A stretch of DNA of 64,000 nucleotides from IMG/VR virus record IMGVR_UViG_3300045988_183866; one strand, given 5' to 3'. A program made the position numbers and the translations under genes. Positions within the stretch are counted from its first letter, which is position 1; every line of letters begins with the position of its first letter. This DNA comes from a virus. Under the pieces are notes generated by a model. It worked only from the letters and a program-made list of their open reading frames with translations, ran no database searches and had not been told where the DNA came from. This document shows, piece after piece, positions 9,001 through 49,944 of the stretch.

Positions 9001-12000
9001 CTGACCCGGCATTTACCTTCCATTACGAAGACAATGCTGGCAATGTGATTGGCCTGATTGACCCCGAAAACAGCCCGCTGAATGTTGAGTTGTACCGCAC
9101 CAAGGGTGAAAATGTTGTGCGCGGCGATGTCACTGCAGCAGATTCTCTCAATAAGTGGGGAACTACCCTCTATGATGGTGATTACCTCATTTCCGCAAAG
9201 TACGATACAAACAACAAGAACTATGCCGTTACCGTATACGATGGTTCTCTGAAAATCATCCCCGCAACGCTCACTGTTACGGTCGATGGCGGATACAAGA
9301 CCACCTACGGCGATGAGATTCCCGAATTCACTTATTCCATCACAGGTTTTGTCGGTCGTGACGTTAAGGACGAAACCGGTACCGGTATCAAGGACGATGA
9401 ATCCAAGGTCTCCGGCACTGCTACAATGTACTGCAACGATAACGCTGGCAATCCCGTAACGAATAAGACGAAAGTTGGTAATTATCCCATCAACTACGAT
9501 AGACAGCAGTTGGTTGCTGACAACAGCAATTACAAGTTTATCTATGTTGGCGGTGACCTGACGATTGGTAAGAAACCTATCCATGTGAAGGCAGATGACC
9601 AGCAGAAGGTTTACGGAGAGAAAGACCCCGACCCGCTGACTTGGACGATTACTGACCCCGAAGAGCTGGTCAATCCCGGTGACGAAGACTTCTTCGATAT
9701 CACCACAAAGCGTCCCGGTGCTGATACTGATGACGGTGAGCAGGTAGGCAAGTATCCCATCACCATTGATGGCACTGACCCGTCCGGCAACTACGAAATC
9801 ATTACCACTCCCGGAACTCTGACCATTGTTCCTGCAACCATCGTTGTTACAGTTATTGACGACGAAAAGTATTTCGGCGAAGATAACCCGACACCCAACG
9901 TAACCATTACCGGCTATAAGCGCGGTGACACCATCGATGATATCGGTGGTAAAGATGCGCTCAAGACCAAGACTGATGCAGAGAAGTGGAGCCCTGTTGG
10001 TGAATATCCTGTATCTGCCAAGGATTCTACTTTCCATAACCCGAACTACGATTTCGTTTACATCGATGGTAAGCTGACCGTTAAACCCTTGATTATTAAC
10101 ATCAAGGCAGAAGACGACCGCAAGACCTACGGTGATAACGACCCCGATAAGTTCAATGTTTCCTATACGCTCACGAACGAGAAAGATGAGCCTTACACTC
10201 CGGATAAGGACCTGCGCGATTATATCGACCGTGCCCTGAATCTGGATGCAGCTCGTGTTCCGGGTGAGAATGTTCGTACCGAGAACCCCGGCTATTCCAT
10301 TGTTCCTACCTATACCGAGGTAGATAATATTGAGATTGGCACAGTAACTCCCGGACATTTCTTCATTGACCCGCGTGAGGTAACCATTATTGCAAACTCC
10401 GCAGAAAAGGTATATGACGGCACTCCGTTGACGGAACCCGGCTATACCTACGCTCCGGAACTCGTAGATAACGACCTGCTTGGCATTCACGATAAGATGG
10501 ATTCTGTGACCGTAACCGGTTCTCAGACCGAAGTGGGTTCCAGCAAGAACGTTCCCAGCGATGCAGTTATCATCAACACCGAAGATGGCAGCGGCAGCAA
10601 TGCCAACTACATCATCAAGTATGTGGATGGTACTCTGACCGTTCGCGATAAGGAAATTGTCTCTATCGAGAAATCTGCTGACCGTGAACGCGCTACGGAT
10701 TACGATGTGATTCGCTACACGATTACCGTTACGAATGCGACCAGTCATGACCTGCACAACGTCATCGTTAAAGATACCAACAACTTCGTTGGTGTTCCTG
10801 TCCTGTCTCAGGCAAACGGTGTGACCTATGATGCAGAGAAGGGCGAGTTCGTTATCGCAGAGATTTCCCATCTGCGCGATGAAACCCATACCAATGCTGT
10901 AACGTTCACCTATACCTACACGGTAGACCCGACCGACCACGGCACCAACAACAACGATATCCTCGAAAACAACGCCAAGATTACCGATATGAAGGTAGTC
11001 GAGAGCTATACTGAGAACCCTGATGGCAGCACCACTCCGAACTATACCGAGCCTAACAAGGATTGGTTGGTTGAGACTCCTGATGTTGATGTGGAAATCA
11101 TCCGTCAGAATCTGACCATCGAAAAGAGTGCTGATAAGACTGAGGCTGGCGTAGGTGATGTCGTCACTTACACGCTGAAAGTCACCAATACGGGCAACAC
11201 GAAGCTTGAAAATGTTGTCGTAAAGGATACGAACAACTTCATGGGCGAGCCTGTCGAGAACACGAAGCTCCACTTCGGCTATCGTGTCAACGATGATGGA
11301 ACATGGACAATCACCAGCCTTGGTGTTGGAAAGTCCGTAACCATTACCTATAAGTACACGGTTGTCGCAGATGACCTCGCAAACGGCAAGCTGGATAACA
11401 TTGCTACCGCAACGATTCCTGCTCGCGAAGACCCGACTATTCCTGAAAAACCTGTCGATTCCAACGAAGTAATCGTGCCGCTGTACTACAAGCACCTGAC
11501 GATTGTCAAGTCTGCTGACCGCGACCACGCTTATCCCGGCGAAGTCGTCAAGTATCAGGTCACTGTCACGAACGACGGCACTGTCGATATGACGAATGTT
11601 ACCGTCTCCGATGACACCAATGCTCTGGGTATGTTTATCGTCTCTACCGGCGACGGATATACCTATAACCCCGAAACCAGACTGTTCACCATTCCTGCTC
11701 TGAATGTCGGCGATTCCGTTACGCTGAATTACCTGTATATTGTGCAGAACGGTGACCCCGAAACGATTATCAACGTAGCTACTGCTCACGCTCCCAAGAA
11801 TCCCGATACTGAGATTCCGGGTGACAAGGACATCGAAGAGCCTTCTAAGCCTGTTGAGGTTGATGTGCTCCGTGATGAACTGACCATCGTAAAGAACGCT
11901 GACAAGAGCTTCGTTGATATGAACGGCAATGACACGACCGTAACCTATACTCTGACCGTTAAGAACAGCGGCAACACAAAGCTGACGAATGTTATCGTTA

Positions 12001-15000
12001 CCGATACATCCAACGGCAACGGCACTGTCGAGTATACTGGCGATTTGATGTATGACGGAAACGGCAAGTGGATGATTCCTGAGTTGAACGCAGGCGAATC
12101 CGTTGAAATCACTTATATCTACACTGCTGTGGCAGAGGATATGAACCTCGATAACGGTAACATCGTGAATACGGCTGTTGCTGAGGGCAAGAACCCCGAC
12201 AACAAGACTGTTACGAGCGACCCCGATACTGAGACTGTCCATGTAGGCGAAGTGCCTGACCGCGATATTCGCGTTGTGAAGACTTCTCTTGAATCCAGTG
12301 TGATGATTGGCGATACCATTCACTACACCATTACCGTTACGAACAACGGCACAATGACTGCTCAGAATGTAGTTGTACGCGACTTCAATGACGGCATTGG
12401 TGAAATCAATGCTGCAAGTTCCGACAAGTATACCTATGACGCAGCGACTCATTCCTTCACCATCGCAGAAATTGCGGCTGGTGAGGTCGTTGAGATTCCT
12501 GTCACCTATACCGTACAGGAAGGCGACAAGGGCACCGTAAACAATGCTGCTGTCGAGATTCCGGAAATTCCCGAAATCGAGAAAAAGGCAGATAAACAGA
12601 CCGTAGTGGTTGGCGAAGTGGTGACTTACACCATTACCGTTACCAATACGACTAACGAGACCAAGACGAATGTTGAGGTCAAGGATACGAACAACTTCAC
12701 GGGCGTTATCACGCCTGCCGAAAACACTGATGTTGTAAGCTATATTGGCGACAAGGTCTGGAATATTTCTTCTATCGGCGCTGGTGAGAGCGTAGACATT
12801 GTCTACACCTACACGGTAATGAATGAAGATGCTCCCAATACCATGCTTGTCAATAACGCTGAAATGACATATGTGACGGATTCCGGCAAGGTAAAGATTC
12901 CTTCCAATGAGGTTGATATCCCTGTCATCCCCGAAACTCCCACGCCGGAACATGTCGGACCCACCGTTGTGAAACAGGCAGACAAGGCCATTGCAAACAT
13001 CGGCGATACGGTGCATTACACCGTCGTCATGCACAACAATGACACTGTTGACTATGTGAATGCAGCGCTGCACGACAAGAACAACTTCAACGGCGTTATC
13101 ACGAATGTCAAGAACGGCACTCTGGAATCTGCATCTGCCGGTTCCGCAGTCATTAAGGTTGGTACTATCCCGGCTGGCAAGACTGTCACGGTAGAATATG
13201 ATTACATTGTGCTGAACACCGATGCCGGTAAGGGTCAGGATACCTACAACGAGCTGAAGAATGTGGCTACGCTGCATTACTGGTTCGCTGACGAAAACCA
13301 GACTCCTGAGAATGAAAAGACGAAGCCTTCTAACGAGGTCACCGTCAAGGTTCCCGGCAGTGATGTACCTGTTCCTGTCAACCCGCCCGAGGGCAAGTTG
13401 AAAGTCGAGAAATTCGTAGACAAGAAGAGTGCTTCTGTTGGCGATATGCTGCATTACACCGTTAAGGTGTCTAATGTTGGCGATGGCGAACTGAAAAATA
13501 TTCTGGTCGAAGACTTCTTCGATGGACACGGTAAACTCAACTACATCCCGGCTGTCGGTGTTGTAGTGAACGGTGATGGCACTTACACCATCAACAAACT
13601 GCCTGCCGGTACATTCATGGAGCTCCGCTTCACCTATGTTATCGTGGAAGGCGATGAGCCTGAGGTCCTGAACGCCGCTGTCGTCACGACGCCGCCCGTT
13701 GACCCGCCGCTCGAACCCACCAAGACGGCTGACAAGAAGTTCGCATTTGTCGATGAAATCGTGACTTACACCATCAGCGTGTATAACCCCGATACCAAGG
13801 CAAAGACGAATGTCACTGTCAAGGATACCAATAACTTTGTTGGCAGCATCAATGCCGCCAATACAGATAAGTACACCTATAACGGCGATAGCACTTGGAC
13901 GATTCCGGAAATCGGAGCAGGGGAGACCATCGACATTACCTATACCTACACGGTACAGAGCAATGATGAGAAGCTCCTCGAGAACAAGGCTGATGTGACG
14001 TATTCCGAGAACGGCGATACCGTGAAACTTGATACGCCGACTGTCGATGTGGTCGTACCCGATAAGGGCACTGTCTCCATCCACAAGGAAGCGGACAAGA
14101 AGATGGCTAAGCCGGGTGAGGTCGTCACCTACAATGTCACCGTTACTAACAACAAGGGCTTCGATGTTCACGATGTTGTAGTAACTGATGCCAACAACTT
14201 CGCTGGCGAAATCACTGGCGTTGACGGCGCAGATTACACCTTCGAGAACGGCGAGTTCCATATCGCTGAGATTGCCGCAGGCGCTTCGGTCACTCTGACC
14301 TACACCTACACGGTTGAAATTGGTGATGTGCCTACTCAGATTCTGGAAAACATCGCTACGGCTGATGTTCCCGGCACGAACCCCGAAGACCCGAACAACC
14401 CCGGTCACGGTAAAGACCCGAACAAGCCTATCGATAACGATGAGAAGATTCCTTCGAATCCTGTCGATGTTGAGGTTCCGGGTTCCGAGACTGAAACCAA
14501 GATTCCTGACCTTGTTCTGACAAAGAGTGTGGATAAGAATGAAGCCGTTGTCGGTGATACTCTGAACTACACGATTACTGTCAAGAACAACGGCAAGGGC
14601 GATGCTGAGAATGTCACAGTCAAGGACTTCTTCGACGGCAAGGGCACACTGAACTTCGTGGCTATGGATGGCGTCACCGATAACGGTGATGACAGTTACA
14701 CGATTGCAAGCGTCAAGGCTGGCGAAAGCGTAACGCTCAACTTCACCTATGTGGTAGTTGACGGAGACGCACCTGAGGTTTTGAATGCGGCAGTCATCAC
14801 GACTCCCGAACCGCCTACGGATATTGTGAAGAGCGCAGACAAGCATATCGCTAAGGTTAATGAGATTGTTACCTACACCATTACGGTGAAGAACAATTCC
14901 AAGGACACTTTGACGAATCTGCTGGTAAGCGATACGAACAACTTCAAGGGCGAAATTGAAGGCAAGGATGGCAAGGGCTACACCTACAACGGTGATAAGA

Positions 15001-18000
15001 CTTGGACCATCGCAACGCTCGAATCCGGCAAGTCCATCGACATTACCTACACCTATACGATGCAGGCAAGCGATGAAACTGTTATTGAAAACACTGCCGA
15101 TGTGCGTTATAGCCACAACGGTACTGACTACAATATTCCGTCCAACCCGGTTGATGTTGAGAAGCCTAACGATGGTGTAGTTACCATCTTTAAGACTGCC
15201 GACAAGACCAAGGCTGAACCGAACGAGGTCGTTACCTATACAGTTACGATTCACAACGGTAAGGATTACAACATCAAGAATGTCCGTCTGACTGACGCGA
15301 ACAACTTCGCGGGCAAGATTGAGGGCGTTGACGGTGCTGGCTACAAGTTCATCAACGGCGAATTTGTCATTGACAAGATTCCTGCTGGCGGTGACGCAGT
15401 GGTTCACTACACCTACACAGTCCAGATTGCCGATGTTCCGACCAAGATTCTTGAAAATGTTGCAACGGCTCATGTCCCCGGCAAGAACCCCGGCGACCCT
15501 GACGAGGAGATTCCTTCCAACAAGGTCGATGTTGAGGTTCCCGGTGACGGCACGCACGTTGATGTGCCGGAAGGCAAGCTCGAAATCGTTAAGAGTGTAG
15601 ACAAAACGGAAGCCAAGGTTGGCGATACGCTGAACTACACGATTACGCTGACGAATGTTGGCGGACAGGCAGTCAAGAACGCTGTCGTCAAGGATTTCTT
15701 TGACGGTAACGGTGTCCTGAACTTCGTTCCGATGGACGGTGTGACGGATAACGGTGATTACACCTACACGGTTGCGAATGTGGAGAAGGGTCAGAGCATT
15801 ACGCTCCGCTTCACTTACACGGTCGTTGCCGGAGATGCGCCGATGGTCCTGAACGCTGCTGTTGTGAAAGACCCGACGCCTCCCGTTGACATCGAGAAGA
15901 CCGCAGACAAGCATGTAGCGATGGTCGATGAAGTCGTCAACTATACCATCACGGTGAAGAACACGACTGATAAGACCGTTACCGACCTGCTGGTCAGCGA
16001 CACCAACAACTTTACAGGCGCAATCACCTCTAAAGACAACGCCAAGTACACCTACAATGGCAACCATACTTGGACTATCCCCAGCATCAAGGCTGGTGAG
16101 AGCATCGATATTCTCTACACCTATACGGTGAAGACTACCGACCCCTCTACGCTGGTCAACGAAGCTGATGTTCGCTACACGACCGATGACGGCGAGTATG
16201 TCATCAAGGCAGACCCTGTTGAAGTCGTTGTCCCGAAGGATGGCGAAGTTACGATTGTCAAGAGCGGTGACAAGAAGATTGCAGAGCCCGGTGAGGTCGT
16301 GACCTACACGGTTACGATTCACAACGGTAAGGCGCATGACATCACCAATGTGGTCGTAAGCGATTCCAACAACTTTGCTGGAACGATTACCGGCACGAAT
16401 GGTGTCGGCTACAAGTTCGTTGACGGACACTTTGTAATCGATAAGATTGCTGCTGGTGCAGACGCTGTTCTGACCTACACCTACACGGTGCAGATTGCAG
16501 ATGTACCCACTCACATTCTGGAAAATGTTGCCACGGCACATGTGCCCGGCACGAATCCGGAAGACCCTGAGAATCCCGGACACGGCAAGGACCCGGATAA
16601 ACCGATTGACCCCGATACGGACATTCCGTCCAATAAGGTCGAAGTGGAAGTCCCCGGTTCCGAAGTTGAGACCGAAATTCCGGAAATCTCTATTACCAAG
16701 TCTGTAGATAAGCCTACTGCCAAGATTGGTGATACGCTAAACTACACCGTCACTGTCAAGAACGGCGGTAACGCGGATGCTGAGAATATCCTGATTAAGG
16801 ATTTCTTTGACGGAAACGGAACGCTGAACTTCAAGGCCATGGATGGCGTGACAGATAACGGAGACAACACCTACACTATTTCTACGGTCAAAGCAGGGGA
16901 GAGCGTAAAGCTTCGTTTCAGCTATGTTGTAGTTGAAGGAGACGAACCTCTCGTACTGAACGCCGCAGTAATCAAAGACCCGACACCGCCTGTTGACGTT
17001 GAGAAGGAAGCCGACAAGCACATTGCAAAGGTTGATGAGGTTGTAACCTACACGATTTCCGTGAAGAACACCACTTCTGAGCCTGTTGACAATGTAACTG
17101 TCACCGATACTAACAACTTCAAGGGCGAAATCAAGGCCGAAAACGCTGACAAGTACACTTACAATGGCAATAAGACGTGGACTATCCCGACTATTGCCGC
17201 TGGCGAGACCATCTATATCACCTACACCTATACGATGCAGGCTGAGGATGCCACCGTCATCGAAAACATTGCAAATGTGACTTACAGCAAGGATGGCACA
17301 GATTACAATATCCCCTCCAACCCCGTCGATGTCGAAAAGCCCGATGATGGTGTTGTCACCATCCGCAAGGCTGCAGATAAGACAAAGGCTGAGCCGGGTG
17401 AGGTTGTAACCTATACCGTCACGGTTCATAACGGAAAGAATCACGACATCGAAAACGCTCGTCTGACAGACACCAACAACTTTGCTGGCGAAATCGTAAG
17501 CGTTGACGGTGCAGATTACACCTTCGAGAACGGCGAATTCACAATCAATAAGATTCCCGCAGGCGGTGATGTGGTTATCCACTACACTTATACGGTTGAA
17601 ATTGCTGATGTGCCCACGCAGATTCTCGAAAACATTGCAACAATCCATGTTCCCGGCACGAATCCCGAAGACCCGAATAATCCGGGTCACGGCAAAGACC
17701 CCGAGAAACCCATTGACCCCGATACGGAGATTCCGTCCAACAAGGTTGATGTGGAAGTTCCCGGCTCTGAAACCGAAACAGAGATTCCTGTAATCGAAAT
17801 CACCAAGTCCGTTGATAAGGCAGAAGCCAAGGTTGGCGATACGCTCAACTATACGGTTACTGTCGCCAACAAGGGCAAGGTTGATGCGGAAAATGTTGTT
17901 GTCGAAGACTTCTTCGATGGCAACGGAACGCTCAACTTCGTGCCCATGGATGGCGTTGCGGATAACGGCGACAACTCCTATACCATCAGCACTGTAAAGG

Positions 18001-19646
18001 CTGGCGAGAGCGTAACGCTTAACTTCACCTATGTGGTAGTTACCGCTGATGCTCCTAAGGTCCTGAACGCTGCTGTTGTGAAAGACCCGACACCGCCTAT
18101 CGATGTTGAAAAGGATGCCGATAAGTATATTGCTAAGGTGACGGATGTTGTGACCTACACCATTACGGTGAAGAACACGACAGACGAAACCGTAAACGAT
18201 ATCACTGTCGCAGACCATAACAACTTTGCGGGTGATGTTACGGCTGAGAGTTCTAACCGCTATACCTATAACGGAGACGGTACTTGGACTATCGGTCATC
18301 TGGATGCCGGTGAGGCTCTTGATATCGTTTATACCTATACGGTAGAGACGACCGATGAGAGCGTTATGGAAAATACCGCAACCATTAAGTACACGCACGA
18401 TGGCGAGCAGTATAATATCCCGTCCAATACAGTCGATGTGAAGAAGCCTGATGATGGCGTTGTCACCATCTGGAAGTCTGCAAACAAGACTGTCGCAAAG
18501 CCGGGTGAGACTGTCACCTATACCGTAACGGTACACAATGGTAAAGACCACGATATTCAGAATGCTGCTCTGACTGATGAGAATAACTTCTCCGGAAGCA
18601 TTTTCGCAGTGGAAGGCGCTGGTTATCACTATGAGAATGGTGTATTCACCATCGACACGATTCCTGCTGGCGGCGATGTGGTTGTCCACTACGCTTATAC
18701 TGTCGGTATCGCCGATGTGACTACGCACATCCTCGAAAACGTAGCGACGATTCATGTTCCCGGTACGAACCCTGAAGACCCGGAGAATCCCGGACAGGGT
18801 AAAGACCCGACGAAACCGATTGACCCTGATACGGATATTCCGTCCAACAAGGTCGATGTGGAAGTTCCGGGTTCCGGCACGGAAACTGACATCCCGCTCG
18901 AAAAGAGCCTCACGATTGTGAAGAGTGCTGACAAGACGAAAGTCAATGTCGGTGAAACCATCAATTATCGTGTGGTAGTAACCAATACCGGTGAAGTAGA
19001 CCTTGTCAATGTAACCGTAAAGGACAACAATGATGGCGCAAGCCATATTGAAGCCCAGAACGGTGATGGATATACTTACAATAGCGCAACGACAACGTTC
19101 ACTATTGCTCGTATCCCTGTTGGCGAATCCTTCACTCTGACCTATTCTTATGTTGCCGTTGACGCGGATGCCGGACACGATGTCATTAACGTGGCTGTCG
19201 CTAAGGCTCCGGGTCAGAATCCCGAAGACCCCGAGAATCCGGGTCATGGTAAGGACCCGTCCAAGCCGATTGATGAAGATGTAGAGAAACCTTCCAACGA
19301 GGTGAAAGTCCCTGTTGTGAAACCCTCTACTCCCACAACGCCTGACGAGCCTAAGCCGACTCCGACTCCTGACAACCCGAAGCCCACTCCGACCCCTGTT
19401 CCTACTGAGAAGCCAAAGACCCCGCCGATTGGCTGGCTCGATATCTTCAAGGTAGACGGCAAGCCCTTCTCCCTCTTCTCTATCTTCACGAGCAACAAGA
19501 AGACGGGTATCGGATTTGCACAGAGCATTGTTGGTCTGGTAGCAATGGTTGGCATTGGCGTCGCTGCTCTGGTGGTAGTAAACCACAAGCGCAAGAAGGA
19601 CGAAAACGACAACAAAGATAACCATAAGGATGATTCCGCTGAATAA
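3..19646 (+). CDS. Giant repetitive cell-surface adhesin, 5'-partial (>6514 aa). The N-terminal half contains a Gly-rich segment and ~90-aa modules with a K-x-Y-G-x-x-D-P motif (MBG/YDG-like). The C-terminal half is an array of DUF11-like 'conserved repeat' domains. The C-terminus is a Pro/Thr stalk, then NKKTG, a TM helix and a Lys-rich tail.
   Basis: The frame is open from nt 3 with no stop upstream of the ATG at 102, so the gene begins outside the window. Periodic motifs TIxPRPxxV...KxYGxxDP occur through aa ~2100-3500. Repeats LTIxKSADKxxAxVGDxxxYTITVxNtGN..L.NVxVxDTNNFxG occur from nt ~10650. The protein ends ..TSNKKTGIGFAQSIVGLVAMVGIGVAALVVVNHKRKKD. Minus-strand ORFs over this span are shadows. 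Confidence 0.9.
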   Translation, partial: SSGGSHGPFLKTTIYGSKSLRIRANGGYTYEEAMVNPDIKHRTPTNWPYKFSVGQTIPAALTHSNGQVAFDDIWVQYDGCASDFTDAGLGKLYEPTVDGRSGTNNFYLAGSGNFVMNQIGHLPLIGVGGANKASPQEMQLCVNTLMWISQRKQCEVCAADQADQQMTHFVHRVNAANAKKILTALANGGSYWYPLSDCYELMEDLDLTKLGFDSTTWKPIKNFTGHWNSKYFDVKVPKDGALFDNTTGDLGAYRTGDGNDWNLGTDRLKGWDTVFKDSGNSSPSVRTTGIARIYGKLSDAKLFNDGQVHEGYTVHIRYEDNTALLQEGDDFSCVVNNVDQYCISNLPCIYVGGKTILRARVYDKAGNEVTKYGPIVAKVPPHFWNDCETVPLELLTIEATPIENYRYWEGETTKVLEGSGIIYNQPISNESVTWYYRVVDLRNTSNALSDWVKIGHYGQFTTEDGAVTGIIKTPVFHDGNDGVYNYPHSSVDVQLQMLAYTGNAIQLRTDYEVEGKTYSTIDPGVITPEASGIIQIEERPMSMTQAPNQRVMTQDEATFVFETDYWKGLDDKGYSYDVQYKDPYDDDWQTLATSVTFGGTYTLNTVDNSQVNKVDIEAHTVDTLAKGKETASMIHDNKWLPADFWRPDGFTDQQCAQKHTTITLTLHAADYNWSGYYFRIVASYRFNEKRTKVENSYSAIGDADNAGFDTSRYGLLQVDAPFVSATMLEARALMMQEHNSEGDATGDFGQNYWSVETTQDQVDNWNASRGDSNNPLISDKNVAVYTTTITFSPSKLTESGNRILIPVLQWGFQDDLNSESTDYKPVINPININGYANNGNGLTTENYKDWANIVKTRYDINTDDSSVMKQVVDAIETEHSGSPFGKFTAYITIDDIKPVEDTMLNGQPFDINSAYAKWSITTSLHIESATNPMDFGTEHFYFQCKPYLEYIRGYNSTKLKSQTITNTLAHNFDYVNGGIDEDNTDTGAELWLDYNISIHANERNLVSCGVDKHSIFMYPELTIEAPNGLRYIMSRYQIVNEFPYGKHRDTSRTVFNQSDHLSVNLGTQYRGQMTTVTRYDMNGNPSQIDVQGKTMADLGISLDERGYLDKNNEDYAPYLDHGYALWSDYSYPKEIWQWFWRNAIQYHCYDMEEFDGTNEQVFFYIDEKNVRAADKSFKANDGNNPTSSWTAPFDATYQIDLWGAGGGNASMTDGISGNSGSHTIITADIKEGTTLYFVAGGAGGGGSTGSGSGGSGGYNGGGSGGVGAVFYDCYKGGGDPDHSYHSNSPIGFGGGGGATTVAFGLIGDGQLKNYGDGSPMFGVAGGGSGAAIISGNGYTTRGVGGSGSNNSGQRYHCALKEDKVFSDGYEYHHGDICGWTYSGTHSSDIKMQREDEEGYNNTLHENGGGSGWQSASTDGALRGSSYAASVGTNLDNGNIIIKANVTGANQLNDGAGSGIGQAGRAKIKVVDLNKRLYRRVGKNAMDIGFEDANECTPTRAKVMLTVANKMYDGNQLTVTAHVVWDGDTDAGIDEQEILRGVNITYSNNESPNITYPTNATTDSKKKPLVRTGSYTATATYTGKYEVTFCWENTKPGKTYVVRGESTTPDEYVSGNGNVVYFDIYPRPLHLYSYDNNKIYDNISTAKVSDIKIKAATADSGIVHGDTVALNSTLAYGYYCENYAPEDFAKTSFRESIHTGLHSIKTVTILELINNPFDNYYIASEDFTGTINPRPLYVHSQYHDVNKYKWNYDGNSNDIGNGKYLTDTTVYDNQNVTIEQAYEMILAGKQENIDITRYTKTEQDNYQNTVVNPNNIKVYDSYYNANIGEEGQGNIYIDNITNYDSVELNAQTYVGSYADSNAGEQLTGYDANGDNGVIKEDRYNGLSTNTIRHLPYSVKYSYSTTTPQVGQKMTVTIAVTNKDTGYGLAAQNNYVAPVAIQNLRLKSRFAGNGPITLKSTNGIRMNQQGTEFYIDTIPVGGTVNIEFEYTVQDIDDTNALVRDIEQNNEMYLVNNNYNDYYIADKTFSGGIYRTTLRAQVKSVSTTYGHGFKNVKLPYADDVYYWNKGSDSWLTMEGLVEDHKTAAQDDEKLDLKAKKTNNYQSKFVYNVVPSETTDAGSYPVSYIGLNEFNYDVLKNYVVTEDPGSIEVKPRKIMISVDESQKIYGTTNPFFNSTFKVLGTDDQGNELDVSDENNWTVLGDDATVDYNNMHLIGNDTIGNVVEVVNGASRTALAFKNGTSNLPYLTTATQSSDVIYQTDVPEEECAYCLEKYNEMHKGHEHYHDDDHPHTHVPVNGYPVSVNENTGYGNTLGIKTVTNSEGQVVSNYELVYESNVLKVHPRLIRIAALDATKAYGGTEPALKWTVDGEIIKPTSEMLGIKAVRDSGENVRDEGYTIRISYEKSTASNYIVETNDAKMTITPVPLTIVFGNQERYYGEDNKNDYTLTVVGLKHGDTADVALKNNDGATAKVLETAKNTLSDYINLTYNKYTDVGSNYLYGDKSYCEEHTILVPRENADGGYNYTIANYTPGVLTIKPRPMLLEVTGWQKELGDADKVQDFTLTDMITHNSVNGQQKLGAGSRITDASVVVNPDKVPIVFNLVRAEGEEVGSYPVYSTPQDRQIGNLAANDQKQLELDNPNYDFEYRYANDLIVKRQGLMITVDDKVRYYGDRVNRFYDGSTDYTYHVFKVENGEAVEITAEEAGINTNSFTFTHLDTQTSSSGTYKDCISLSGVHSTIYDDDDITITAGNLTIIPRPVSVIAEDNTKVYGDADPELKYTLHDGVRGEDGNYYIEYANGPVLTEKEGADVPVQPGDLEGTGVTREPGEDVWTGEHSFGKAYAINANDISPVSKDGITNYVITMENGNFTITPAELVVTVKGGYSKTYGEENPAFDADITGFKRDDTKETVLNGELGFATLCFDLSDAGKYIVTAGNNNEDAVNPDCVVLEDGEEHIGSTFEVKSNTNFEKNYVIRYVNGDITVNPKELIVRIDHKVKTYGTADPAFTFHYEDNAGNVIGLIDPENSPLNVELYRTKGENVVRGDVTAADSLNKWGTTLYDGDYLISAKYDTNNKNYAVTVYDGSLKIIPATLTVTVDGGYKTTYGDEIPEFTYSITGFVGRDVKDETGTGIKDDESKVSGTATMYCNDNAGNPVTNKTKVGNYPINYDRQQLVADNSNYKFIYVGGDLTIGKKPIHVKADDQQKVYGEKDPDPLTWTITDPEELVNPGDEDFFDITTKRPGADTDDGEQVGKYPITIDGTDPSGNYEIITTPGTLTIVPATIVVTVIDDEKYFGEDNPTPNVTITGYKRGDTIDDIGGKDALKTKTDAEKWSPVGEYPVSAKDSTFHNPNYDFVYIDGKLTVKPLIINIKAEDDRKTYGDNDPDKFNVSYTLTNEKDEPYTPDKDLRDYIDRALNLDAARVPGENVRTENPGYSIVPTYTEVDNIEIGTVTPGHFFIDPREVTIIANSAEKVYDGTPLTEPGYTYAPELVDNDLLGIHDKMDSVTVTGSQTEVGSSKNVPSDAVIINTEDGSGSNANYIIKYVDGTLTVRDKEIVSIEKSADRERATDYDVIRYTITVTNATSHDLHNVIVKDTNNFVGVPVLSQANGVTYDAEKGEFVIAEISHLRDETHTNAVTFTYTYTVDPTDHGTNNNDILENNAKITDMKVVESYTENPDGSTTPNYTEPNKDWLVETPDVDVEIIRQNLTIEKSADKTEAGVGDVVTYTLKVTNTGNTKLENVVVKDTNNFMGEPVENTKLHFGYRVNDDGTWTITSLGVGKSVTITYKYTVVADDLANGKLDNIATATIPAREDPTIPEKPVDSNEVIVPLYYKHLTIVKSADRDHAYPGEVVKYQVTVTNDGTVDMTNVTVSDDTNALGMFIVSTGDGYTYNPETRLFTIPALNVGDSVTLNYLYIVQNGDPETIINVATAHAPKNPDTEIPGDKDIEEPSKPVEVDVLRDELTIVKNADKSFVDMNGNDTTVTYTLTVKNSGNTKLTNVIVTDTSNGNGTVEYTGDLMYDGNGKWMIPELNAGESVEITYIYTAVAEDMNLDNGNIVNTAVAEGKNPDNKTVTSDPDTETVHVGEVPDRDIRVVKTSLESSVMIGDTIHYTITVTNNGTMTAQNVVVRDFNDGIGEINAASSDKYTYDAATHSFTIAEIAAGEVVEIPVTYTVQEGDKGTVNNAAVEIPEIPEIEKKADKQTVVVGEVVTYTITVTNTTNETKTNVEVKDTNNFTGVITPAENTDVVSYIGDKVWNISSIGAGESVDIVYTYTVMNEDAPNTMLVNNAEMTYVTDSGKVKIPSNEVDIPVIPETPTPEHVGPTVVKQADKAIANIGDTVHYTVVMHNNDTVDYVNAALHDKNNFNGVITNVKNGTLESASAGSAVIKVGTIPAGKTVTVEYDYIVLNTDAGKGQDTYNELKNVATLHYWFADENQTPENEKTKPSNEVTVKVPGSDVPVPVNPPEGKLKVEKFVDKKSASVGDMLHYTVKVSNVGDGELKNILVEDFFDGHGKLNYIPAVGVVVNGDGTYTINKLPAGTFMELRFTYVIVEGDEPEVLNAAVVTTPPVDPPLEPTKTADKKFAFVDEIVTYTISVYNPDTKAKTNVTVKDTNNFVGSINAANTDKYTYNGDSTWTIPEIGAGETIDITYTYTVQSNDEKLLENKADVTYSENGDTVKLDTPTVDVVVPDKGTVSIHKEADKKMAKPGEVVTYNVTVTNNKGFDVHDVVVTDANNFAGEITGVDGADYTFENGEFHIAEIAAGASVTLTYTYTVEIGDVPTQILENIATADVPGTNPEDPNNPGHGKDPNKPIDNDEKIPSNPVDVEVPGSETETKIPDLVLTKSVDKNEAVVGDTLNYTITVKNNGKGDAENVTVKDFFDGKGTLNFVAMDGVTDNGDDSYTIASVKAGESVTLNFTYVVVDGDAPEVLNAAVITTPEPPTDIVKSADKHIAKVNEIVTYTITVKNNSKDTLTNLLVSDTNNFKGEIEGKDGKGYTYNGDKTWTIATLESGKSIDITYTYTMQASDETVIENTADVRYSHNGTDYNIPSNPVDVEKPNDGVVTIFKTADKTKAEPNEVVTYTVTIHNGKDYNIKNVRLTDANNFAGKIEGVDGAGYKFINGEFVIDKIPAGGDAVVHYTYTVQIADVPTKILENVATAHVPGKNPGDPDEEIPSNKVDVEVPGDGTHVDVPEGKLEIVKSVDKTEAKVGDTLNYTITLTNVGGQAVKNAVVKDFFDGNGVLNFVPMDGVTDNGDYTYTVANVEKGQSITLRFTYTVVAGDAPMVLNAAVVKDPTPPVDIEKTADKHVAMVDEVVNYTITVKNTTDKTVTDLLVSDTNNFTGAITSKDNAKYTYNGNHTWTIPSIKAGESIDILYTYTVKTTDPSTLVNEADVRYTTDDGEYVIKADPVEVVVPKDGEVTIVKSGDKKIAEPGEVVTYTVTIHNGKAHDITNVVVSDSNNFAGTITGTNGVGYKFVDGHFVIDKIAAGADAVLTYTYTVQIADVPTHILENVATAHVPGTNPEDPENPGHGKDPDKPIDPDTDIPSNKVEVEVPGSEVETEIPEISITKSVDKPTAKIGDTLNYTVTVKNGGNADAENILIKDFFDGNGTLNFKAMDGVTDNGDNTYTISTVKAGESVKLRFSYVVVEGDEPLVLNAAVIKDPTPPVDVEKEADKHIAKVDEVVTYTISVKNTTSEPVDNVTVTDTNNFKGEIKAENADKYTYNGNKTWTIPTIAAGETIYITYTYTMQAEDATVIENIANVTYSKDGTDYNIPSNPVDVEKPDDGVVTIRKAADKTKAEPGEVVTYTVTVHNGKNHDIENARLTDTNNFAGEIVSVDGADYTFENGEFTINKIPAGGDVVIHYTYTVEIADVPTQILENIATIHVPGTNPEDPNNPGHGKDPEKPIDPDTEIPSNKVDVEVPGSETETEIPVIEITKSVDKAEAKVGDTLNYTVTVANKGKVDAENVVVEDFFDGNGTLNFVPMDGVADNGDNSYTISTVKAGESVTLNFTYVVVTADAPKVLNAAVVKDPTPPIDVEKDADKYIAKVTDVVTYTITVKNTTDETVNDITVADHNNFAGDVTAESSNRYTYNGDGTWTIGHLDAGEALDIVYTYTVETTDESVMENTATIKYTHDGEQYNIPSNTVDVKKPDDGVVTIWKSANKTVAKPGETVTYTVTVHNGKDHDIQNAALTDENNFSGSIFAVEGAGYHYENGVFTIDTIPAGGDVVVHYAYTVGIADVTTHILENVATIHVPGTNPEDPENPGQGKDPTKPIDPDTDIPSNKVDVEVPGSGTETDIPLEKSLTIVKSADKTKVNVGETINYRVVVTNTGEVDLVNVTVKDNNDGASHIEAQNGDGYTYNSATTTFTIARIPVGESFTLTYSYVAVDADAGHDVINVAVAKAPGQNPEDPENPGHGKDPSKPIDEDVEKPSNEVKVPVVKPSTPTTPDEPKPTPTPDNPKPTPTPVPTEKPKTPPIGWLDIFKVDGKPFSLFSIFTSNKKTGIGFAQSIVGLVAMVGIGVAALVVVNHKRKKDENDNKDNHKDDSAE
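6440..10650 (+). repeat. In-frame array of ~90-aa MBG/YDG-like modules (KxYGxxDP motif) within the giant adhesin gene
   Basis: Recurring peptides include KIYGTTNPFFNSTFKVLG, KAYGGTEPALKWTVDG, RYYGEDNKNDYTLTVVG, KVYGDADPELKYTLHDG, KTYGEENPAFDADITGF, KTYGTADPAFTFHYED, KVYGEKDPDPLTWTITD and KTYGDNDPDKFNVSYTL. Confidence 0.7.
14370..19000 (+). repeat. Tandem coding super-repeat with ~1110-nt period and about 5 copies. Each unit holds three DUF11-like domains plus a PGTNPEDPENPGHGKDPxKPIDPDTxIPSNKVDVEVPGSETE linker.
   Basis: The near-identical linker peptide PGTNPEDP(E/N)NPGHGKDP recurs at nt ~14370, 15475 (degenerate), 16540, 17650, 18760 and 19210. Peptides between linkers align at ~75-90% identity, e.g. 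KSVDKxEAKVGDTLNYTxTV.N.G..DAENVxVKDFFDGNGTLNF. Confidence 0.85.
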
Positions 19647-19660
19647 GCGGTAAAACAATA

Positions 19661-19697
19661 GAGCGGTGGTTCGAAAGAGCCGCCGCTCTTTTTTTTG
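19661..19697 (+). terminator. Rho-independent terminator after giant adhesin gene 1
   Basis: GC hairpin gagcggtgg-ttcgaaaga-gccgccgctc followed by T9. Confidence 0.7.
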
Positions 19698-19729
19698 CGT
19701 AAAAAACTTCTAATTTTCAGAATAATTAT

Positions 19730-20073: not shown

Positions 20074-23000
20074 ATGCAGAAACCTCGTAAGCGGTTTTTG
20101 AGTGCGATTGTCGCCGTAGCAATGTGCCTGTCTCAGTTTGCTCCTGTCACTGCTTATGCAGTGGAGAGCGCGAGTGGAATCACGCAGAGTGAAGAAGCTC
20201 CGAAGGAAACTGATGCGCTCAGCACTACGACAACAAACTCCGACTCTTCCGCTACTACTCCCGCGCCGAAAAGCGATGTTACCGACACAGCAAGTTCCGC
20301 GTCCAGCGACACTTCTGTGACGAGCGATGTTTCTTCTGAGGCTACAAGTCAGGCGGGGTCTGAAACGACCACTGCCTACGCAAACAGTGCTGCCTCTGAT
20401 ACTGGTGCAAGCACCAGCACTTCCAGCGAAGCTTCTACCACTGGCAGCATCAGTGAAGCAGCACAGGCATTTATCGATGCGGCTAACGCCCTTGTAAGCC
20501 GTAAAGATGAAATTCTGACTGCTGCAAACAACTTCGGTCTTGCAAGCAAGGCATGGCAGGCTGACAAGGAAAACGCGGTTCTTGATGCGATGGTCACGCG
20601 TCGCACTGAGGAACTGGATGCAGTTTATGACTGGGAGCCCATTGAAGACATGTATTATTCTCTGAGCGAGGATGAGCAGGTCGCCGAGCCCGTCATGAAT
20701 GCATACCTTGACATGTCTGACCTGTATCTGCAGGTTTGCGACCGTCAGGAAAACCCCGTAGACAACAGCGGTGCCAGCGCGTTTGATGGCGGCGGTTCTA
20801 CGACTGTCATCGGGGACTATCAGGCAATCACCGCTGCTGAGACTGGTAAGCAGATTGCCGCAGGCACTGGTATTCAGTATACCAAGATTAGCGGTCAGGA
20901 GAATGTTATTCGCATTCTGCCTCAGACTGTTACCTACACCTACGGTGACTCCTTCAAGTCTAAGGGTCTGACCATCGAATACAGCACTGCTGATTCCCGT
21001 ACTCCTCAGGAAGTCCAGAAGGATATTCAGGCAGCTATCGACGGTCTGAGCTTCATCATGTACGCTCCTGCTGATGGTGACGGCCAGAATCCTACAGACA
21101 TTCATTGCAATCACGGTACTTATCCGACTTATGTTGATACGGGTGCCACAAGCGTTACTGTGAATGGTCTAAATTACACCATCATTGACGGTTCCAACTT
21201 GGATTCTTCCAAGAACATCCGCAATGACACGGGCGTGACTATCAACAAGCGTCAGATTTTCATTGTCCCTCATACCACTTATGTTACGAAGGGCAATACC
21301 ATCAGCCAGATTAACTACACCGTTATGGATACCAATGGTGGTCTGGTTGACGGCGACCTGCTTCCTGCGGATGTTCTGACCACAGAGAACTTTGATAAGG
21401 ACACTACCGGTTCTTACAAAATCATCTTAGGTTCCTCTGCGAAGAGCAACACGAACTACAACGTCGACATCCAGCCTAACACCGGCGATGTGTATGTTGT
21501 CGTTTCCGAAAAGACTCTGACCCTGACTCCCGTATTTGTCTTTAAGGGCAATGATGGCGTACAGACGACTGGCAGCAAAGCCACTCGTCAGTATGGTCAG
21601 CAGAACCCTCAGGTTGACTTCGTGATTACCGGCTGGTCTGATACTGATAAGACGAATTTCGAGTATAAGACCAATAATGAACACAAGTCCAATGCGGTTG
21701 CTCTGAAAGAAATGCTTGGTCTGAGCGGTGAACCCACCGTTGTTCTGCCCAGCATCACCTCTGCTCCCGGTGGCTATACTGTTACAATCGGCAATATCCA
21801 GACGAATGCGCCTATCAATGGTTATAACATCAACCTTGCTACCGCAACGTTTGAAATTACCAAGCGTAATGTAACCATCACCAACAATCAAATTGATGCC
21901 ATCTATGGTGAGGCTGAAAAGGGCAAGAATTCCACCATCACCTTGGACGCTGTTGCTTATAACGGTGCTGCTCAGGCAGTATCTTCTGAAGCACGTATTG
22001 TTACCGGTAAAGACATCACCGCCGATGACGGTGTGAATAAACTGGTCAGCATGGTTCTGACAACTCAGCGTCAGGATATTGACAACAAGAATGTTGGCGA
22101 ATATCCGATGACCGTTGAAGTTCCTCCTGCATGTACTGCTTACTATGACGTCAAGGTCATCAACAGCAAGTACATCATCCATCCTGCAATGCTGACTGTC
22201 ACTCTCGATGACCTGTCTGCAATGTATGGTGCTGCTCGTTCCGGCAAGATTAAATCCATCGAAGGTTTCAAGCTGAACGATACACAGGCAAGCATCGGCT
22301 TGACCGAGGACAAGCTTGGCTTTACTATGGTAGATGCGGCTGGCAACAGCGGCATTCCTACAACTGCCAATGTCGGCGAGTACAATGTTACCGCAAGCGT
22401 TATGGGCGCTTCTCAGGAGCGTTGGTCTCCTGATTGGGACATGAAAGCCGATGGTAAGGACTATGACCGTTTCGACAACTACCTCGTTCGCTTCGTTGAC
22501 AGCAAGCTGACCATCACCAAGCGTCCTATCGCCATCAATGTGATGGGTGGTCAGACGAAGGTTTACGGCGACAGTGATGCCAAGGGCGGCGTTGCCTTTA
22601 CTCTTGACCCCGTCAATGGCAAGGGTGGCCGTGTTGGTTCCGACTTTGCTGGCTGCGTTGTGACTCGTGAGGTCGGCGAGACTGTTGGCTCTTACGCTTA
22701 CAGCGATGCTCAGTTCCAGACTGCTGAAATCGCCAAGAACTACGACATCACCTTCAATGCTCCCGATAAGTACACTATCACCAAGCGTACTCTGACCATC
22801 ACCGTTCCGAACCGTGAGCGTCTGTATGGCGCAGAGAATCCCAGCGATGCCGACATTACCGGCGCACTGGAATACAAGAACTTCGCAAGCAACGATGAAA
22901 TTGGCATCCATGATACTGTCGCTTCTCTGGGCGGCACTGTCACCATCAAGTATGGCGTTGATAATACCGTTGGTAAGCTGACTGGTGTCGGTACCTATCC

Positions 23001-26000
23001 TATTGTTGTTTCCGGTTACACCAACCCCAACTACAACATCGTTTATACCGGTACTTACAGCGATGGTACAAGCGGTACGCTGACTATCAATGCACTGCCT
23101 GTCACCATCAAGGGTACTACCAACAGCGTCCGTAAGTACGGCGTTGCCGGTAAGAACACCCCCAGCTATGCGCTGTATGACGAGACCGGTTCTCAGGCTA
23201 TCAATGTGGTTGACCCGCAGGGCAGCCCGCTGAACATCCACATCGACCTGACCAAGTGGGAAGACCCCACCACGGTTGTTGGTAACTATGAGGCTACCAT
23301 CTCCTATGATGAGAACCCCAACTACATCGTAACGATTGCTCCGCAGGCTACGTTCCAAGTCACCGAGGCTGATGTCTCTGTCACCTTCAACGCACTGCAG
23401 ACTACTTACGGTGAGAAGAAGCCCGATACCATCGCCAAGGAAGTTTCCGTCAATGTGAATACCTCCGACGGCACTCAGATTTACCATGATGGCGAAACCG
23501 TCAACATCAAGATGGACGGCAAGGATGTTTCTCTGGGCGTTGTTCGTATCGCCGTTGAGGCTACTGCGAACGCTTCTGGTTTGTACGATGCAGGTTCTTA
23601 CAACCTGACCTTCCGTCTGGATAACCAGCCCGCAAACAGCGTTAAGCTGTCTGAGCCCGATGGCAAGAACATGCTGATTGTTCATCAGATGCCCCTGACC
23701 ATCACTCCTCGCTATGGCCTGTCCAAGACTTACGGCGAGACTGACCCCAGCTTTGCAGTCAACGATACTTATGTCATCTTCGACTACAACACCACCAGCT
23801 TCGCAGAGCCCAAGGCCGACTTCGCACAGGCTCGTCTGAGCCGTGAAGCAGGCGAGAACGCTGGCACTTATCCGATTTACAGCGGTAACATCTATGAGCA
23901 GACGATGGCAAAGAACTATCGTATCAGCTTCACCAATGATGTTCGCTTCACCATCAATAAGCGTACTGCCGTTATCAACCTGCTCGAAACCGAAAAGACC
24001 TATGGTGAGACCCTCACTTCTATGAACGTGAAGGATTACATCAAGGGCGGCACTGGTCTGCTGACTACTACTGATGTTCAGGCAGCAGAAGCCGAAAAGA
24101 TTCTTAAGGGCATTACCCTGACTTCCGGTGCAACTTCTGCTTCCGCAAGCGTTGGCACTTATGCTCTGAAAGCTATCTACGCACAGCCTGCCAACTACGA
24201 CCTGACGGTGATTGATTCTACCATCACCATCACTCCTCGTCCCATCACCCTGACTTTCTCCAACTACGAGAAGGATTACGGCGATGCAGACCCCGCATTC
24301 TCTTACAGCGAGATTTCCGGCAACATTTCCAACGATGGTCTGAAGAAGAATACGCTGGAACTGACTACTGGTGCTCTGAGCGGCTCTGTTACTCGCAAAG
24401 CCGGTGAGGATGTCGGTGAATACCCCATCAGCTCTACTCTGTACAACAAGTACGGCAACTACGCAATCACCATCGTGACTGGCTCCGGCACTTCCGTCGA
24501 CGTTGGTTCTTCCACCACTGAGCCCGAGGCTCTGGAAGTTGCTACTCTGACCATCAAGCCCGTTAAGGTCACCTTTACCGTGGCTGGCGGTTACTCCATG
24601 ATTTATGGCGGCACCGTTCCCACGTTCAGCTACACCGTTACTGGCTTGAAGAACAATGACACCGTTGCTTCCGCATTCACTGGCTCGGTTGTCTACAACA
24701 TCAAGAATGCTGACGGTTCTCTGTCCGAGATTCCTGCTCGTCCTGCTGCTGGCGATTATGTCATCACCATGAGTGGTCTGGAAAACAAGGGCGCAAAGAA
24801 CTATGACCCCATCGTCTTTGTTGATGGTTCTCTGCATGTCGATAAGCGCGATGTAATCGTGGTTGTTGACGAAGGCCAGAAGAAGGTCTACGGCGAGGCT
24901 GACCCCGAACTGACTTGGACTGCAACTGGCGACGGCGCTTACTATGTAAGCGAAGATGCAGGTGACCTTGCAAACCTGAAGGTTGTTCGTCCTGACGCTG
25001 GCACCGATGCTGGTGAGGATGTCGGCAAGCACCCGATGATTATCGAGGGCGATGATGTCAACTTCAACATCACCCGCGTAAACAACACCTTCGAAATCAC
25101 TCCTGCTACGCTGAATGTTACTCTGGCTCCCCAGAGCAAGATTTACGGCGATGAGAACCCTGTTCTCTCCGGCGACGACCTGATTTTCGATGGATTCGTT
25201 GTGAAACCCGTCAAGGGCAACACTACTCCTGATGACGCTGGTGTTCTGAGCATTGCAAACCTGACCTTCAACTTTACCGATGCTGAGGGAGCTCCCGCAA
25301 CGGTAGCTTCTCACGCTGGTACCGGCAAGGTCGTTCCTGCAAATGTTGAGAATGCCGCAGCAAACAACTACACCTTTGTTTACGCTCCCGTTGATTTTGT
25401 TATCGACAAGCGTCCCATCACTGTCACTGCTAAACCCCAGACTTCTATCTATGGCGACGATGTTGCTGTTGAAGATTGGTCTGATTACGGCACCGTGAAC
25501 GTTCTGGAATACACTGGTGACACTGCCAAGGCAGCTCTGGTCAATGGTGATATTCTGGAAGGCACGAACCTGTGCCTCGTCACTTCTGCAAGCCATGTCG
25601 GAGGCTATGACATTGTTCCTTCCTTCTCCGGTCTGGCTCACCGCGTCGGTCAGGCTTCTTATCAGGATTATCTGGTAACTGCTATGAACGGCACTTACAC
25701 GGTCACTCAGCGTCCTCTGACTTGGACCATCGGCACTGTTGGTTCTGTCTACGGCAATGAAATGGCCGAACTGAGCAATACCCTTACCTATACTGGTGAT
25801 GCCGATAAGAAGACCATCGTTAATGGCGATGACCTGAAAGCTATTATCAGCATCACTCAGAAGGATGTTGAGAACGCGGTTGCCGAAAAGATTTCCATGA
25901 AGTCTGCTGATGGTGCTGCTTCTCTGGTTGCGGAGAGCGTGCCCGAATCTGTCAAGAATTACGGTGCATACGACATGGTCGGTTCTTACGACAATGATGA

Positions 26001-28017: not shown

Positions 28018-28057
28018 CCAACTGAAATAATCTCTACTCCGCGTAAGAGATAACATA

Positions 28058-34445: not shown

Positions 34446-34964
34446 ATGAACAGCGTAGAAACGAAAACAACGGATAAGACTTATGCAGTCAAGAATACTC
34501 ACAAACAGGAATGGGAGACGCCTCAGGGGCTTTTCGATGACCTGAACAAGGAATATGGTTTCACTCTGGATGCGGCTGCATCGGACAAAAATCATAAATG
34601 CAAGAAATATTACACGGAGCGTGTCGATGGTCTCTTGCAGGACTGGAAAGGTGAAACAGTATTTTGTAATCCCCCGACAGGGCACAAGTCCTTTAAGTTG
34701 TGGGTGCGCAAGGCGTACGAGGAGTCAAGGAAAAGGAATACCACGGTCGTCATGCTTTTACCCGTTTCTACGGACTCTGACTGGTTCCAGAGATACATTT
34801 ATGGACAGCAGGGAGTAAGGGTAAAGTTTCTGCCTGCCAGAATCAAGATGACGAACCCTTATCTGTTCATTGACTCTGAGAATCGGAAAGAGACTATCGG
34901 CAGTCGTCGTCCTTCTATGATTGTTGAGTTCACAAACAAAAAGCGTAAGTTCTCGATTATTTAA
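34446..34964 (+). CDS. Phage-type DNA N6-adenine methyltransferase (Dam, PF05869-like)
   Basis: EWETPQGLFDDLNKEYGFTLDAAASDKNHKCKKYYTERVDGLLQDWKGETVFCNPPTGH...VVMLLPVSTDSDWFQRYIY..VKFLPARIKM matches the phage Dam family pattern (WxTPxxLF..L...FxLDxAA..N.....YYT...DGL...W...vF.NPPY). Here the motif reads NPPT rather than NPPY. Confidence 0.75.
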   Translation: MNSVETKTTDKTYAVKNTHKQEWETPQGLFDDLNKEYGFTLDAAASDKNHKCKKYYTERVDGLLQDWKGETVFCNPPTGHKSFKLWVRKAYEESRKRNTTVVMLLPVSTDSDWFQRYIYGQQGVRVKFLPARIKMTNPYLFIDSENRKETIGSRRPSMIVEFTNKKRKFSII

Positions 34965-38367: not shown

Positions 38368-38594
38368 CCGTTCCTGTCATTGGAAATACCAAGCAGCCAG
38401 TCAGACGAAACATGTAAGGCTTTTGCTAAATTGCATAGCATTTGTGCTCGCGGCATCGTCTTTCCTGACTCCCATTTTTGGATGCAGCGATAGGAACAAT
38501 TCGTGCTTGCCGCCAACTGTTCTTGGCTGTAATTGATTTCCATTCGTTGCTTTTTGATTCGCTTTCCTACCATGGTATCAAAGGTGGATGGCAT
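38364..38594 (-). CDS. XRE-family helix-turn-helix transcriptional regulator (Cro/CI-like, 76 aa)
   Basis: MVGKRIKKQRMEINYSQEQLAASTNCSYRCIQKWESGKTMPRAQMLCNLAKAL is a canonical XRE HTH. It is one of only two minus-strand genes in the island and is divergent from the par genes. Confidence 0.8.
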   Translation of the reverse strand: MPSTFDTMVGKRIKKQRMEINYSQEQLAASTNCSYRCIQKWESGKTMPRAQMLCNLAKALHVSSDWLLGISNDRNG

Positions 38595-49929: not shown

Positions 49930-49944
49930 CGGGAGGGCAACACA

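Follow-up and report, generated by a model that had tools for sequence, protein, structure and literature searches.

The C-terminus of a giant surface protein encoded at one end of a 64,000-nt stretch of DNA, filed as viral under the IMG/VR record IMGVR_UViG_3300045988_183866 (the whole stretch is referred to here as the window), raises the question of how such a protein might be fixed to the surface of the cell and by which enzyme. The initial annotation, made from the letters of the DNA alone, had read this C-terminus as the tripartite signal of a sortase substrate with the pentapeptide NKKTG in place of LPXTG, and had pointed to a SrtB gene in what it took to be the same island. That interpretation is broadly sensible and is partly supported by the analysis presented here. 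We regard the chances as evenly balanced that, as comparison of related sequences suggests, the tail functions as a cell-wall sorting signal of the sortase type, with the core x-x-[K/P]-T-G-[V/I]-G and without the P3 proline typical of class B signals, and that it is served by a class B enzyme carried on the same plasmid. The element concerned is not a chromosomal island; the window is almost certainly a piece of a Hodor conjugative megaplasmid of more than 300 kb.

Giant surface protein 1 (3..19646, + strand) comprises more than 6547 amino acids, with its N-terminus beyond the window edge, since the open frame already runs at base 3 and its first ATG is not followed by a signal peptide. The full-length giant protein of Hodor plasmids has 7309-7704 amino acids (PMC12934698), and the orthologue at locus L012 begins with the signal peptide MSKGKTWQRVASAFLAAVMTFSTFSTTIAYA. 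MBG_2 domains and about 20 DUF11/CLIPPER and DUF7507 repeats are encoded, and then the sorting-signal-like tail; CLIPPER is a recent new name for DUF11, which is now regarded as a domain with an isopeptide bond (bioRxiv 10.1101/2025.04.25.650565). In translation the tail, all on the + strand, opens with a Pro/Thr-rich stalk, KPSTPTTPDEPKPTPTPDNPKPTPTPVPTEKPKTPP (19320..19427), that would span the cell wall, and a 22-residue hydrophobic/aromatic spacer, IGWLDIFKVDGKPFSLFSIFTS (19428..19493), leads from the stalk to NKKTG (19494..19508), the candidate sortase recognition pentapeptide, with the predicted scissile bond between T and G. There follow a hydrophobic segment of 24 residues, IGFAQSIVGLVAMVGIGVAALVVV (19509..19580), beginning with a conserved I-G-F, the basic cluster NHKRKK (19581..19598) and an acidic 15-residue extension, DENDNKDNHKDDSAE, which with the stop codon occupies 19599..19646 (residues 19599..19643). 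The sequence at 19440..19646 is thus as first described, but the C-terminus quoted at that time stopped at ...DEND, 11 residues short of the true end.

The same layout recurs in giant surface protein 2 (20074..28017, + strand; 2647 amino acids), a protein that starts with the signal peptide MQKPRKRFLSAIVAVAMCLSQFAPVTAYA and contains MBG_2 domains as well as a Pro/Thr stalk. Here NYKTG (27850..27864) precedes a 26-residue hydrophobic segment starting with VGF (27865..27942), then KKKK and, beyond it, a 20-residue charged extension, GDSEDKAAEKTEDKTEEKKQ (27955..28014), again all on the + strand. In a six-frame scan of the window, giant proteins 1 and 2 were the only two open reading frames with xxxTG before a hydrophobic-plus-basic C-terminus. 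An N-terminal Sec signal peptide, as expected of a sortase substrate, is present in protein 2 directly and in protein 1 by way of the L012 orthologue, while the hydrophobic segments of 24 and 26 residues are each followed by a positively charged cluster, NHKRKK and KKKK, respectively. Both tails finish in charged, mostly acidic ends of 15-20 residues that are kept between plasmid clades. The proposed tripartite arrangement of Pro/Thr stalk, NKKTG, hydrophobic segment and basic tail is therefore confirmed by translation, extends to the second giant protein and is conserved in relatives.

To follow the motif in these relatives, C-termini of the two adhesins recovered in homologue searches (mostly gene fragments) and from related loci were aligned on the T-G dipeptide, the residues before the predicted scissile bond being numbered P1, P2 and so on and those after it P1', P2' and so on. 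Adhesin 1 carries NKKTG-IGF both in the plasmid clade of the window and in a second clade, and PSKTG-VG[VL] in relatives of about 50% identity; adhesin 2 carries NYKTG-VGF in this clade and QAPTG-VGL in the second, and was not found in the relatives of about 50% identity. Examples of tail peptides around the T-G motif are FTSNKKTGIGFAQS, VVVNYKTGVGFGAD and AAQAPTGVGLSAN. In the second clade NKKTG and QAPTG occur on one contig (L012, L013, L026-L029). Across orthologues of about 50-80% identity the invariant core is T-G-[VI]-G, with P2 usually Lys, while the Asn found at P4 in both window proteins is Pro in PSKTG and Gln in QAPTG. The general motif put forward initially, [NS]xKTG, consequently fails as a description of the family, both its Asn and its Lys being replaceable. 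The T-G register is nevertheless not a matter of chance, since it is conserved in orthologues whose upstream linkers cannot be aligned. In adhesin 1 the sequence VVVNHKRKKD around the basic cluster is identical in the second clade, in which a shorter IQGIVSIITG takes the place of the spacer IGWLDIFKVDGKPFSLFSIFTS.

The candidate enzyme for these tails is encoded at 51681..52652 (+ strand), a membrane-anchored class B-type sortase with an N-terminal transmembrane helix and the sole sortase in the window. Its family, drawn from 5.8 billion proteins, consists of 41 cluster representatives, and in the 26 of them taken into the alignment H209 (GHSNGN), C303 (LSTC) and R312 (TRF) are invariant. For the window protein no match to the Pfam Sortase model was obtained at E <= 1, PF04203 being carried by its more distant relatives. 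Searched against the PDB, the family profile returned SrtB in 15 of 15 matches, the best to Bacillus anthracis (2.8e-22), followed by Listeria, Clostridioides difficile, Clostridium perfringens and Staphylococcus aureus. An AlphaFold2 model of the sortase (mean predicted local distance difference test score 77, core above 90) was compared by Foldseek with PDB structures, of which the top 19 were of class B (E = 3e-16 to 1e-11, target-normalised template-modelling scores 0.66-0.84), with class A, C and E structures beginning near E = 2e-7, about four orders of magnitude weaker. In IMG the members of the sortase cluster are labelled 'SrtB family sortase'. Judged by its catalytic triad, profile matches and predicted fold, the protein is a divergent class B-type sortase, so that the SrtB gene first noted at 51681 was assigned correctly, as was its position 32 kb downstream. 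Among GTDB species representatives the family is all but missing, a scan of their contigs with the sortase profile having found a single distant locus, 24% identical, in an Acetatifactor metagenome-assembled genome.

Sortase and adhesins are inherited together. Adhesin 2 accompanies the sortase on 7 of the 7 IMG/VR contigs on which the latter was found. The second clade, whose sortases are 75% identical, has the adhesin pair ending about 9 kb 5' of the SecY-SecG-SecE-FKBP-sortase genes at all 16 loci with a full flank. Most of the roughly 20-kb stretch that lies between the adhesins and this cluster in the window is absent from the second clade, in which the module is compact. Further afield, at locus L076, a 40%-identical sortase, which scores above the cutoff of the Pfam Sortase model, immediately follows three consecutive Flg_new/BspA-LRR surface proteins, whose ends read VPTTG-VG, VPKTG-VE and VPKTG-ID, and in the Acetatifactor genome (L001) the 24%-identical SrtB lies directly 5' of an SPKTG-tailed protein, a classical SrtB/SPKTG reference pair. 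Apart from L076, no tail-bearing open reading frame was found within 10 kb on either side of sortase homologues of 37-51% identity. The sortase/tail pairings seen are consistent with published class B specificities and with the importance of residues after the cleavage site.

The sortase gene stands at the end of a cluster of genes, all on the + strand, concerned with export and folding. Just 5' of SecY is a conserved zinc-ribbon (zf_Tbcl) protein (47600..48289), which is probably the 'hyp' gene of a module described in a recent preprint (see below). It is followed by a plasmid-encoded SecY (48589..49929; Pfam SecY E = 8e-87), 90% identical in the second clade, by an 84-residue SecG-like protein with two transmembrane segments (49945..50199), which matches PF03840 over the full model length at E = 0.0018, below the Pfam cutoff, and is named SecG in PMC12934698, by SecE (50196..50447; PF00584, E = 4e-8) and by an FKBP/trigger-factor-like lipoprotein (50506..51669). 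The cluster from zinc-ribbon protein to sortase is kept in relatives with sortases 69% and 75% identical. The SecG-like and SecE reading frames overlap by 4 nt, and the SecY, SecG-like and SecE set (48589..50447) is carried by a mobile element with no SecA-like gene seen in the window.

The FKBP protein starts with MKKNAKEILAVISAACIALTAC, ahead of GKN, a lipoprotein signal peptide with the lipobox LTAC, which is kept in relatives (LAAC in L008; LTAC in L026 and L041). Against TIGR00115 it aligns to profile positions 108-371 of 410 only, the ribosome-binding N-domain being missing. With its lipobox signal peptide and no N-domain, the 'trigger factor' resembles an FKBP foldase that is extracytoplasmic and tethered to the membrane, in a position like that of PrsA, and not the cytosolic protein that the wording of the preprint suggests.

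From these observations we infer a route by which the adhesins may reach the wall. Directed by its N-terminal signal peptide, each would be exported, probably by way of the SecYEG that the plasmid itself encodes, and would fold outside the membrane with the help of the FKBP lipoprotein, the hydrophobic segment and basic cluster retaining it in the membrane. The plasmid-encoded class B sortase would then cut between T and G and link the protein to peptidoglycan, with the Pro/Thr stalk passing across the wall and the isopeptide-type repeat array directed outward. Such a module would let the plasmid decorate any Bacillota host that it entered.

Several observations weigh against this reading. At P3 the variants NKKTG, NYKTG, PSKTG and QAPTG have K, Y, S and A, respectively, and none has Pro, which appears there only in the distant cases of L076 (VPKTG) and L001 (SPKTG). 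The comparison with NPKTG, SPKTG and PPKTG made at the outset does not extend to the P3 proline of those motifs. The enzyme itself scores 77.9 bits against the class B model TIGR03064, half of the cutoff of 153.75, and in the window it starts 32,035 nt downstream of adhesin 1. No NCBIfam or Pfam sorting-signal model reached its cutoff with the tails of the giant proteins; LPXTG_anchor (TIGR01167) gave 14.4 for protein 2, against a cutoff of 15.9, and no match for protein 1. A weak match of the tails to Loki-CTERM (16.7, cutoff 19.9) was discarded as transmembrane-segment similarity only.

Part of this evidence can be turned into a different account of the tails, in which the C-terminus is a permanent, uncleaved membrane anchor, TG[VI]G being the small-residue start of a helix and the charged extension having a role of its own, for instance in contacting plasmid-encoded cytoplasmic or conjugation proteins. 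In adhesin 2 the residues P4-P2 are wholly changed between clades, from NYK to QAP, while the hydrophobic segment is identical at about 16 of 20 positions (about 80%) and the basic and acidic parts of the tail are also kept. A signal read by an enzyme and an anchor that is never cut would, as far as these sequences go, account for this pattern equally well. A charged extension of 15-20 residues after the basic cluster is moreover atypical of sorting signals, and the failure of every sorting-signal model to reach its cutoff is as expected of an anchor. What speaks for cleavage is that the T-G dipeptide stands at exactly the expected register in unrelated passengers, those of L076 and L001, beside sortases of the same class, that a Pro/Thr stalk spanning the wall, together with repeats of the isopeptide type, is a hallmark of adhesins anchored there (bioRxiv 10.1101/2025.04.25.650565), and that the sortase is strictly co-inherited with the giant proteins. 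We consider a permanent anchor unlikely, though a serious contender.

The tails might alternatively be genuine sorting signals handled by another sortase, either the class A (or class C) enzyme of the plasmid or a housekeeping sortase of the host, with the class B enzyme serving other substrates. Class A and class B sortases have been reported in both groups of Hodor plasmids, with class C in G1, and the choice between class A and/or class B as the anchoring enzyme was left open (PMC12934698); the assignment to SrtB is accordingly plausible but not exclusive. The 32 kb between sortase and adhesins in the window fits this alternative, as does the coexistence of NKKTG and QAPTG on one plasmid, which demands a permissive enzyme. 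Class A and class C enzymes, however, characteristically require LPXTG, and Leu-Pro occurs in none of the four variants. It is also the class B and not the class A gene that lies within the Sec/foldase cluster, about 9 kb from the adhesins in the second clade, and a relative of the class B sortase directly adjoins VP[KT]TG-[VI] substrates at L076. Action of a different sortase on these tails thus appears rather improbable.

Chance resemblance, that is, an ordinary hydrophobic C-terminus that happens to be preceded by KTG, might be suspected of so short a motif that no curated model recognises, but it is effectively refuted, and in our view exceedingly improbable, given that the same register is shared by the two giant proteins, by every orthologue down to about 50% identity and by three further proteins beside a homologous sortase.

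If the tails are indeed cut by the class B sortase of the plasmid, that enzyme may represent a new specificity, reading mainly T-G and the primed side in T-G-[V/I]-G-[F/L], with cleavage between T and G, and tolerating nearly any residues at P4-P2, within a self-contained, host-independent display kit of SecYEG, FKBP foldase and sortase that would place adhesins of more than 7,000 amino acids on Bacillota cells. This fuller proposal goes well beyond the tails themselves and is advanced tentatively, as somewhat doubtful.

Class B sortases are known to recognise NPQTN (S. aureus SrtB-IsdC), NPKTG (B. anthracis SrtB-IsdC), NAKTN/NPKSS (Listeria monocytogenes) and (S/P)PXTG (C. difficile), NAKTN being a precedent for a residue other than proline at P3, and residues on the primed side matter for the enzymes of B. 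anthracis and C. difficile (PMC11987632, PMC4155245, PMC8225981). The system described here resembles these pairs in the class B fold, the catalytic triad, the three-part signal, Thr at P1 and Gly at P1', and the window motif has Lys at P2, as in NPKTG, SPKTG and PPKTG, and Asn at P4, as in NPKTG. It departs from them in having no Pro at P3, no conservation of the Asn at P4 and [VI]-G-[FLV] instead of acidic residues at P2'-P4'. The substrates differ too, being not haem receptors but adhesins with lengths from 2,600 to more than 7,000 amino acids, and the enzyme is plasmid-borne, clustered with its own SecYEG and foldase, and reaches half of the NCBIfam equivalog cutoff.

Plasmids of the pCW3 family carry the adhesin gene cnaC together with dam and parM, paralleling the Dam methylase and ParM-like genes of the window. 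Like the Hodor element, pCW3 is a conjugative plasmid of Gram-positive bacteria with its own sortase, and where PMC8225981 cites Revitt-Mills 2021, this sortase, SrtD of C. perfringens, is described as needed for efficient transfer. The two differ in that pCW3 has another sortase class and motif, is about seven times smaller, lacks genes for SecYEG and for a foldase and encodes adhesins of ordinary size. The accessory Sec system (SecA2/SecY2) of streptococci and staphylococci combines an extra SecY with a very large, sortase-anchored serine-rich-repeat adhesin encoded beside it. A dedicated additional SecY encoded near a very large adhesin is common to both arrangements, but the plasmid has SecY, SecG and SecE together, its adhesins are built of MBG and DUF11 repeats, and the window showed no SecA2, Asp or glycosyltransferase genes.

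Hodor conjugative megaplasmids (Yuan et al., bioRxiv, February 2026, PMC12934698) average 357 kb, come from the human gut, fall into groups G1 and G2 and had earlier been gathered among the huge phages. In each group there is a surface module that consists of the giant protein, an MBG protein of about 2642 amino acids and the genes hyp-SecY-SecG-SecE-trigger factor-class B sortase, the Sec/foldase/class B sortase cluster being among the few modules common to the two groups (PMC12934698). According to the methods of that study, the two giant proteins fit the usual pattern of a signal peptide combined with a cell-wall sorting signal, and candidate motifs are marked in a supplementary figure; its main text states neither the motif nor the acting sortase (PMC12934698). 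Window and Hodor module agree in gene set and gene order, with nothing essential differing, and further agree in ParM, in human gut origin and in contigs of about 340-390 kb that have been filed as huge phage. Group G2 is probable for the window, the flanking loci having a guanine-plus-cytosine content of 43.6-43.9%, compared with 46.6-47.9% in the other clade. Contigs with a sortase and adhesin that are 98-99% or 75% identical measure 240-389 kb, derive, by their source names, from the human gut and are filed as viral in IMG/VR; IMGVR_UViG_3300023499_000220 (345,980 bp) and IMGVR_UViG_3300045988_181067 (389,222 bp), within L016-L029, are examples.

The Hodor traits Rep_3, ParA/ParB, VirD4, VirB4, VirB6 and the MOBH-like relaxase lie outside the 64 kb of the window, in which only the ParM/Alp7A-like gene was seen. 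A 25-kb query found no match by megablast among INPHARED phages or PLSDB plasmids, and when phage records were searched by tblastn with the sortase and with SecY, only distant or contaminant-like matches resulted. Comparison of 20 window proteins with PHROGs revealed no virion genes; the matches were to a partition protein, to a family annotated as lipoprotein, which the flotillin gene matched, to a radical-SAM family and to a few families whose function is unknown. The 10 kb beyond the right edge of the window held unannotated genes only and no hallmark genes. Reading the IMG/VR matches as huge phages was given up after ParM, Dam and similar genes had been recognised and then the Hodor preprint explained the misfiling (PMC12934698).

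The giant proteins have thus already been described as putative sortase-anchored Hodor proteins, and the preprint independently arrives at the same general reading of their tails (PMC12934698). The present analysis adds to this the motif variants with their T-G-[VI]-G core and their lack of a P3 proline, the comparison with L076 and the recognition of the 'trigger factor' as a lipoprotein.

The part of the window that separates the adhesins from the Sec/sortase cluster encodes a flotillin/SPFH protein (31242..32777), a Dam-type N6-adenine methylase (34446..34964) and the ParM/Alp7A-like actin (38533..39792; phrog_691 partition protein, E = 1.5e-28), most other window genes being unannotated. 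A strong terminator-like hairpin (19660..19699), with a 13-bp stem, 8 G-C pairs and a T7 run, lies 14 nt past the stop codon of adhesin 1, despite which the giant gene and the three genes downstream of it have been reported to be co-transcribed (PMC12934698). Opposite the giant genes, long antisense open reading frames are found on the (-) strand at 4077..16583 (4168 amino acids) and 21427..28056 (2209 amino acids), with others at 30..3365 (1111 amino acids) and 16737..19658 (973 amino acids), probably as a side effect of repetition and codon bias in the sense strand.

Related loci showed features of their own. At L003 an IS605-type OrfB/TnpB insertion (3978..5081, (-) strand) separates genes that are adjacent in the window, the copy being otherwise collinear. 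The L076 genes (2763..10798) lie on a 145.7-kb Joint Genome Institute contig, Ga0247608_10000127, which is mostly unannotated, with NERD, RNase_T and Toprim genes nearby. L006 (an ENA contig of 345,480 bp) and L010 (a termite gut contig of 127 kb) carry sortase homologues 38-51% identical to that of the window without adjoining SecYEG, their neighbours being DnaE, topoisomerase, SLT, sigma-70, RepB primase, RRXRR-HNH, DUF4314 and toxin-antitoxin genes, and may be further large Hodor-like elements, one of them from outside the human gut. The literal motif strings were also sought in the literature, and no searchable paper containing them was found.

If confirmed, recognition of these tails by the plasmid's sortase would widen the class B repertoire to motifs that lack the proline and depend on the primed side, would help in predicting surface proteins in gut Firmicutes and might possibly supply an orthogonal tag for sortase-mediated ligation. 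For the plasmids themselves it would mean that a very common megaplasmid of the human gut displays giant adhesins with export, folding and anchoring machinery of its own, a capacity that would probably be relevant to mating-pair formation or colonisation.

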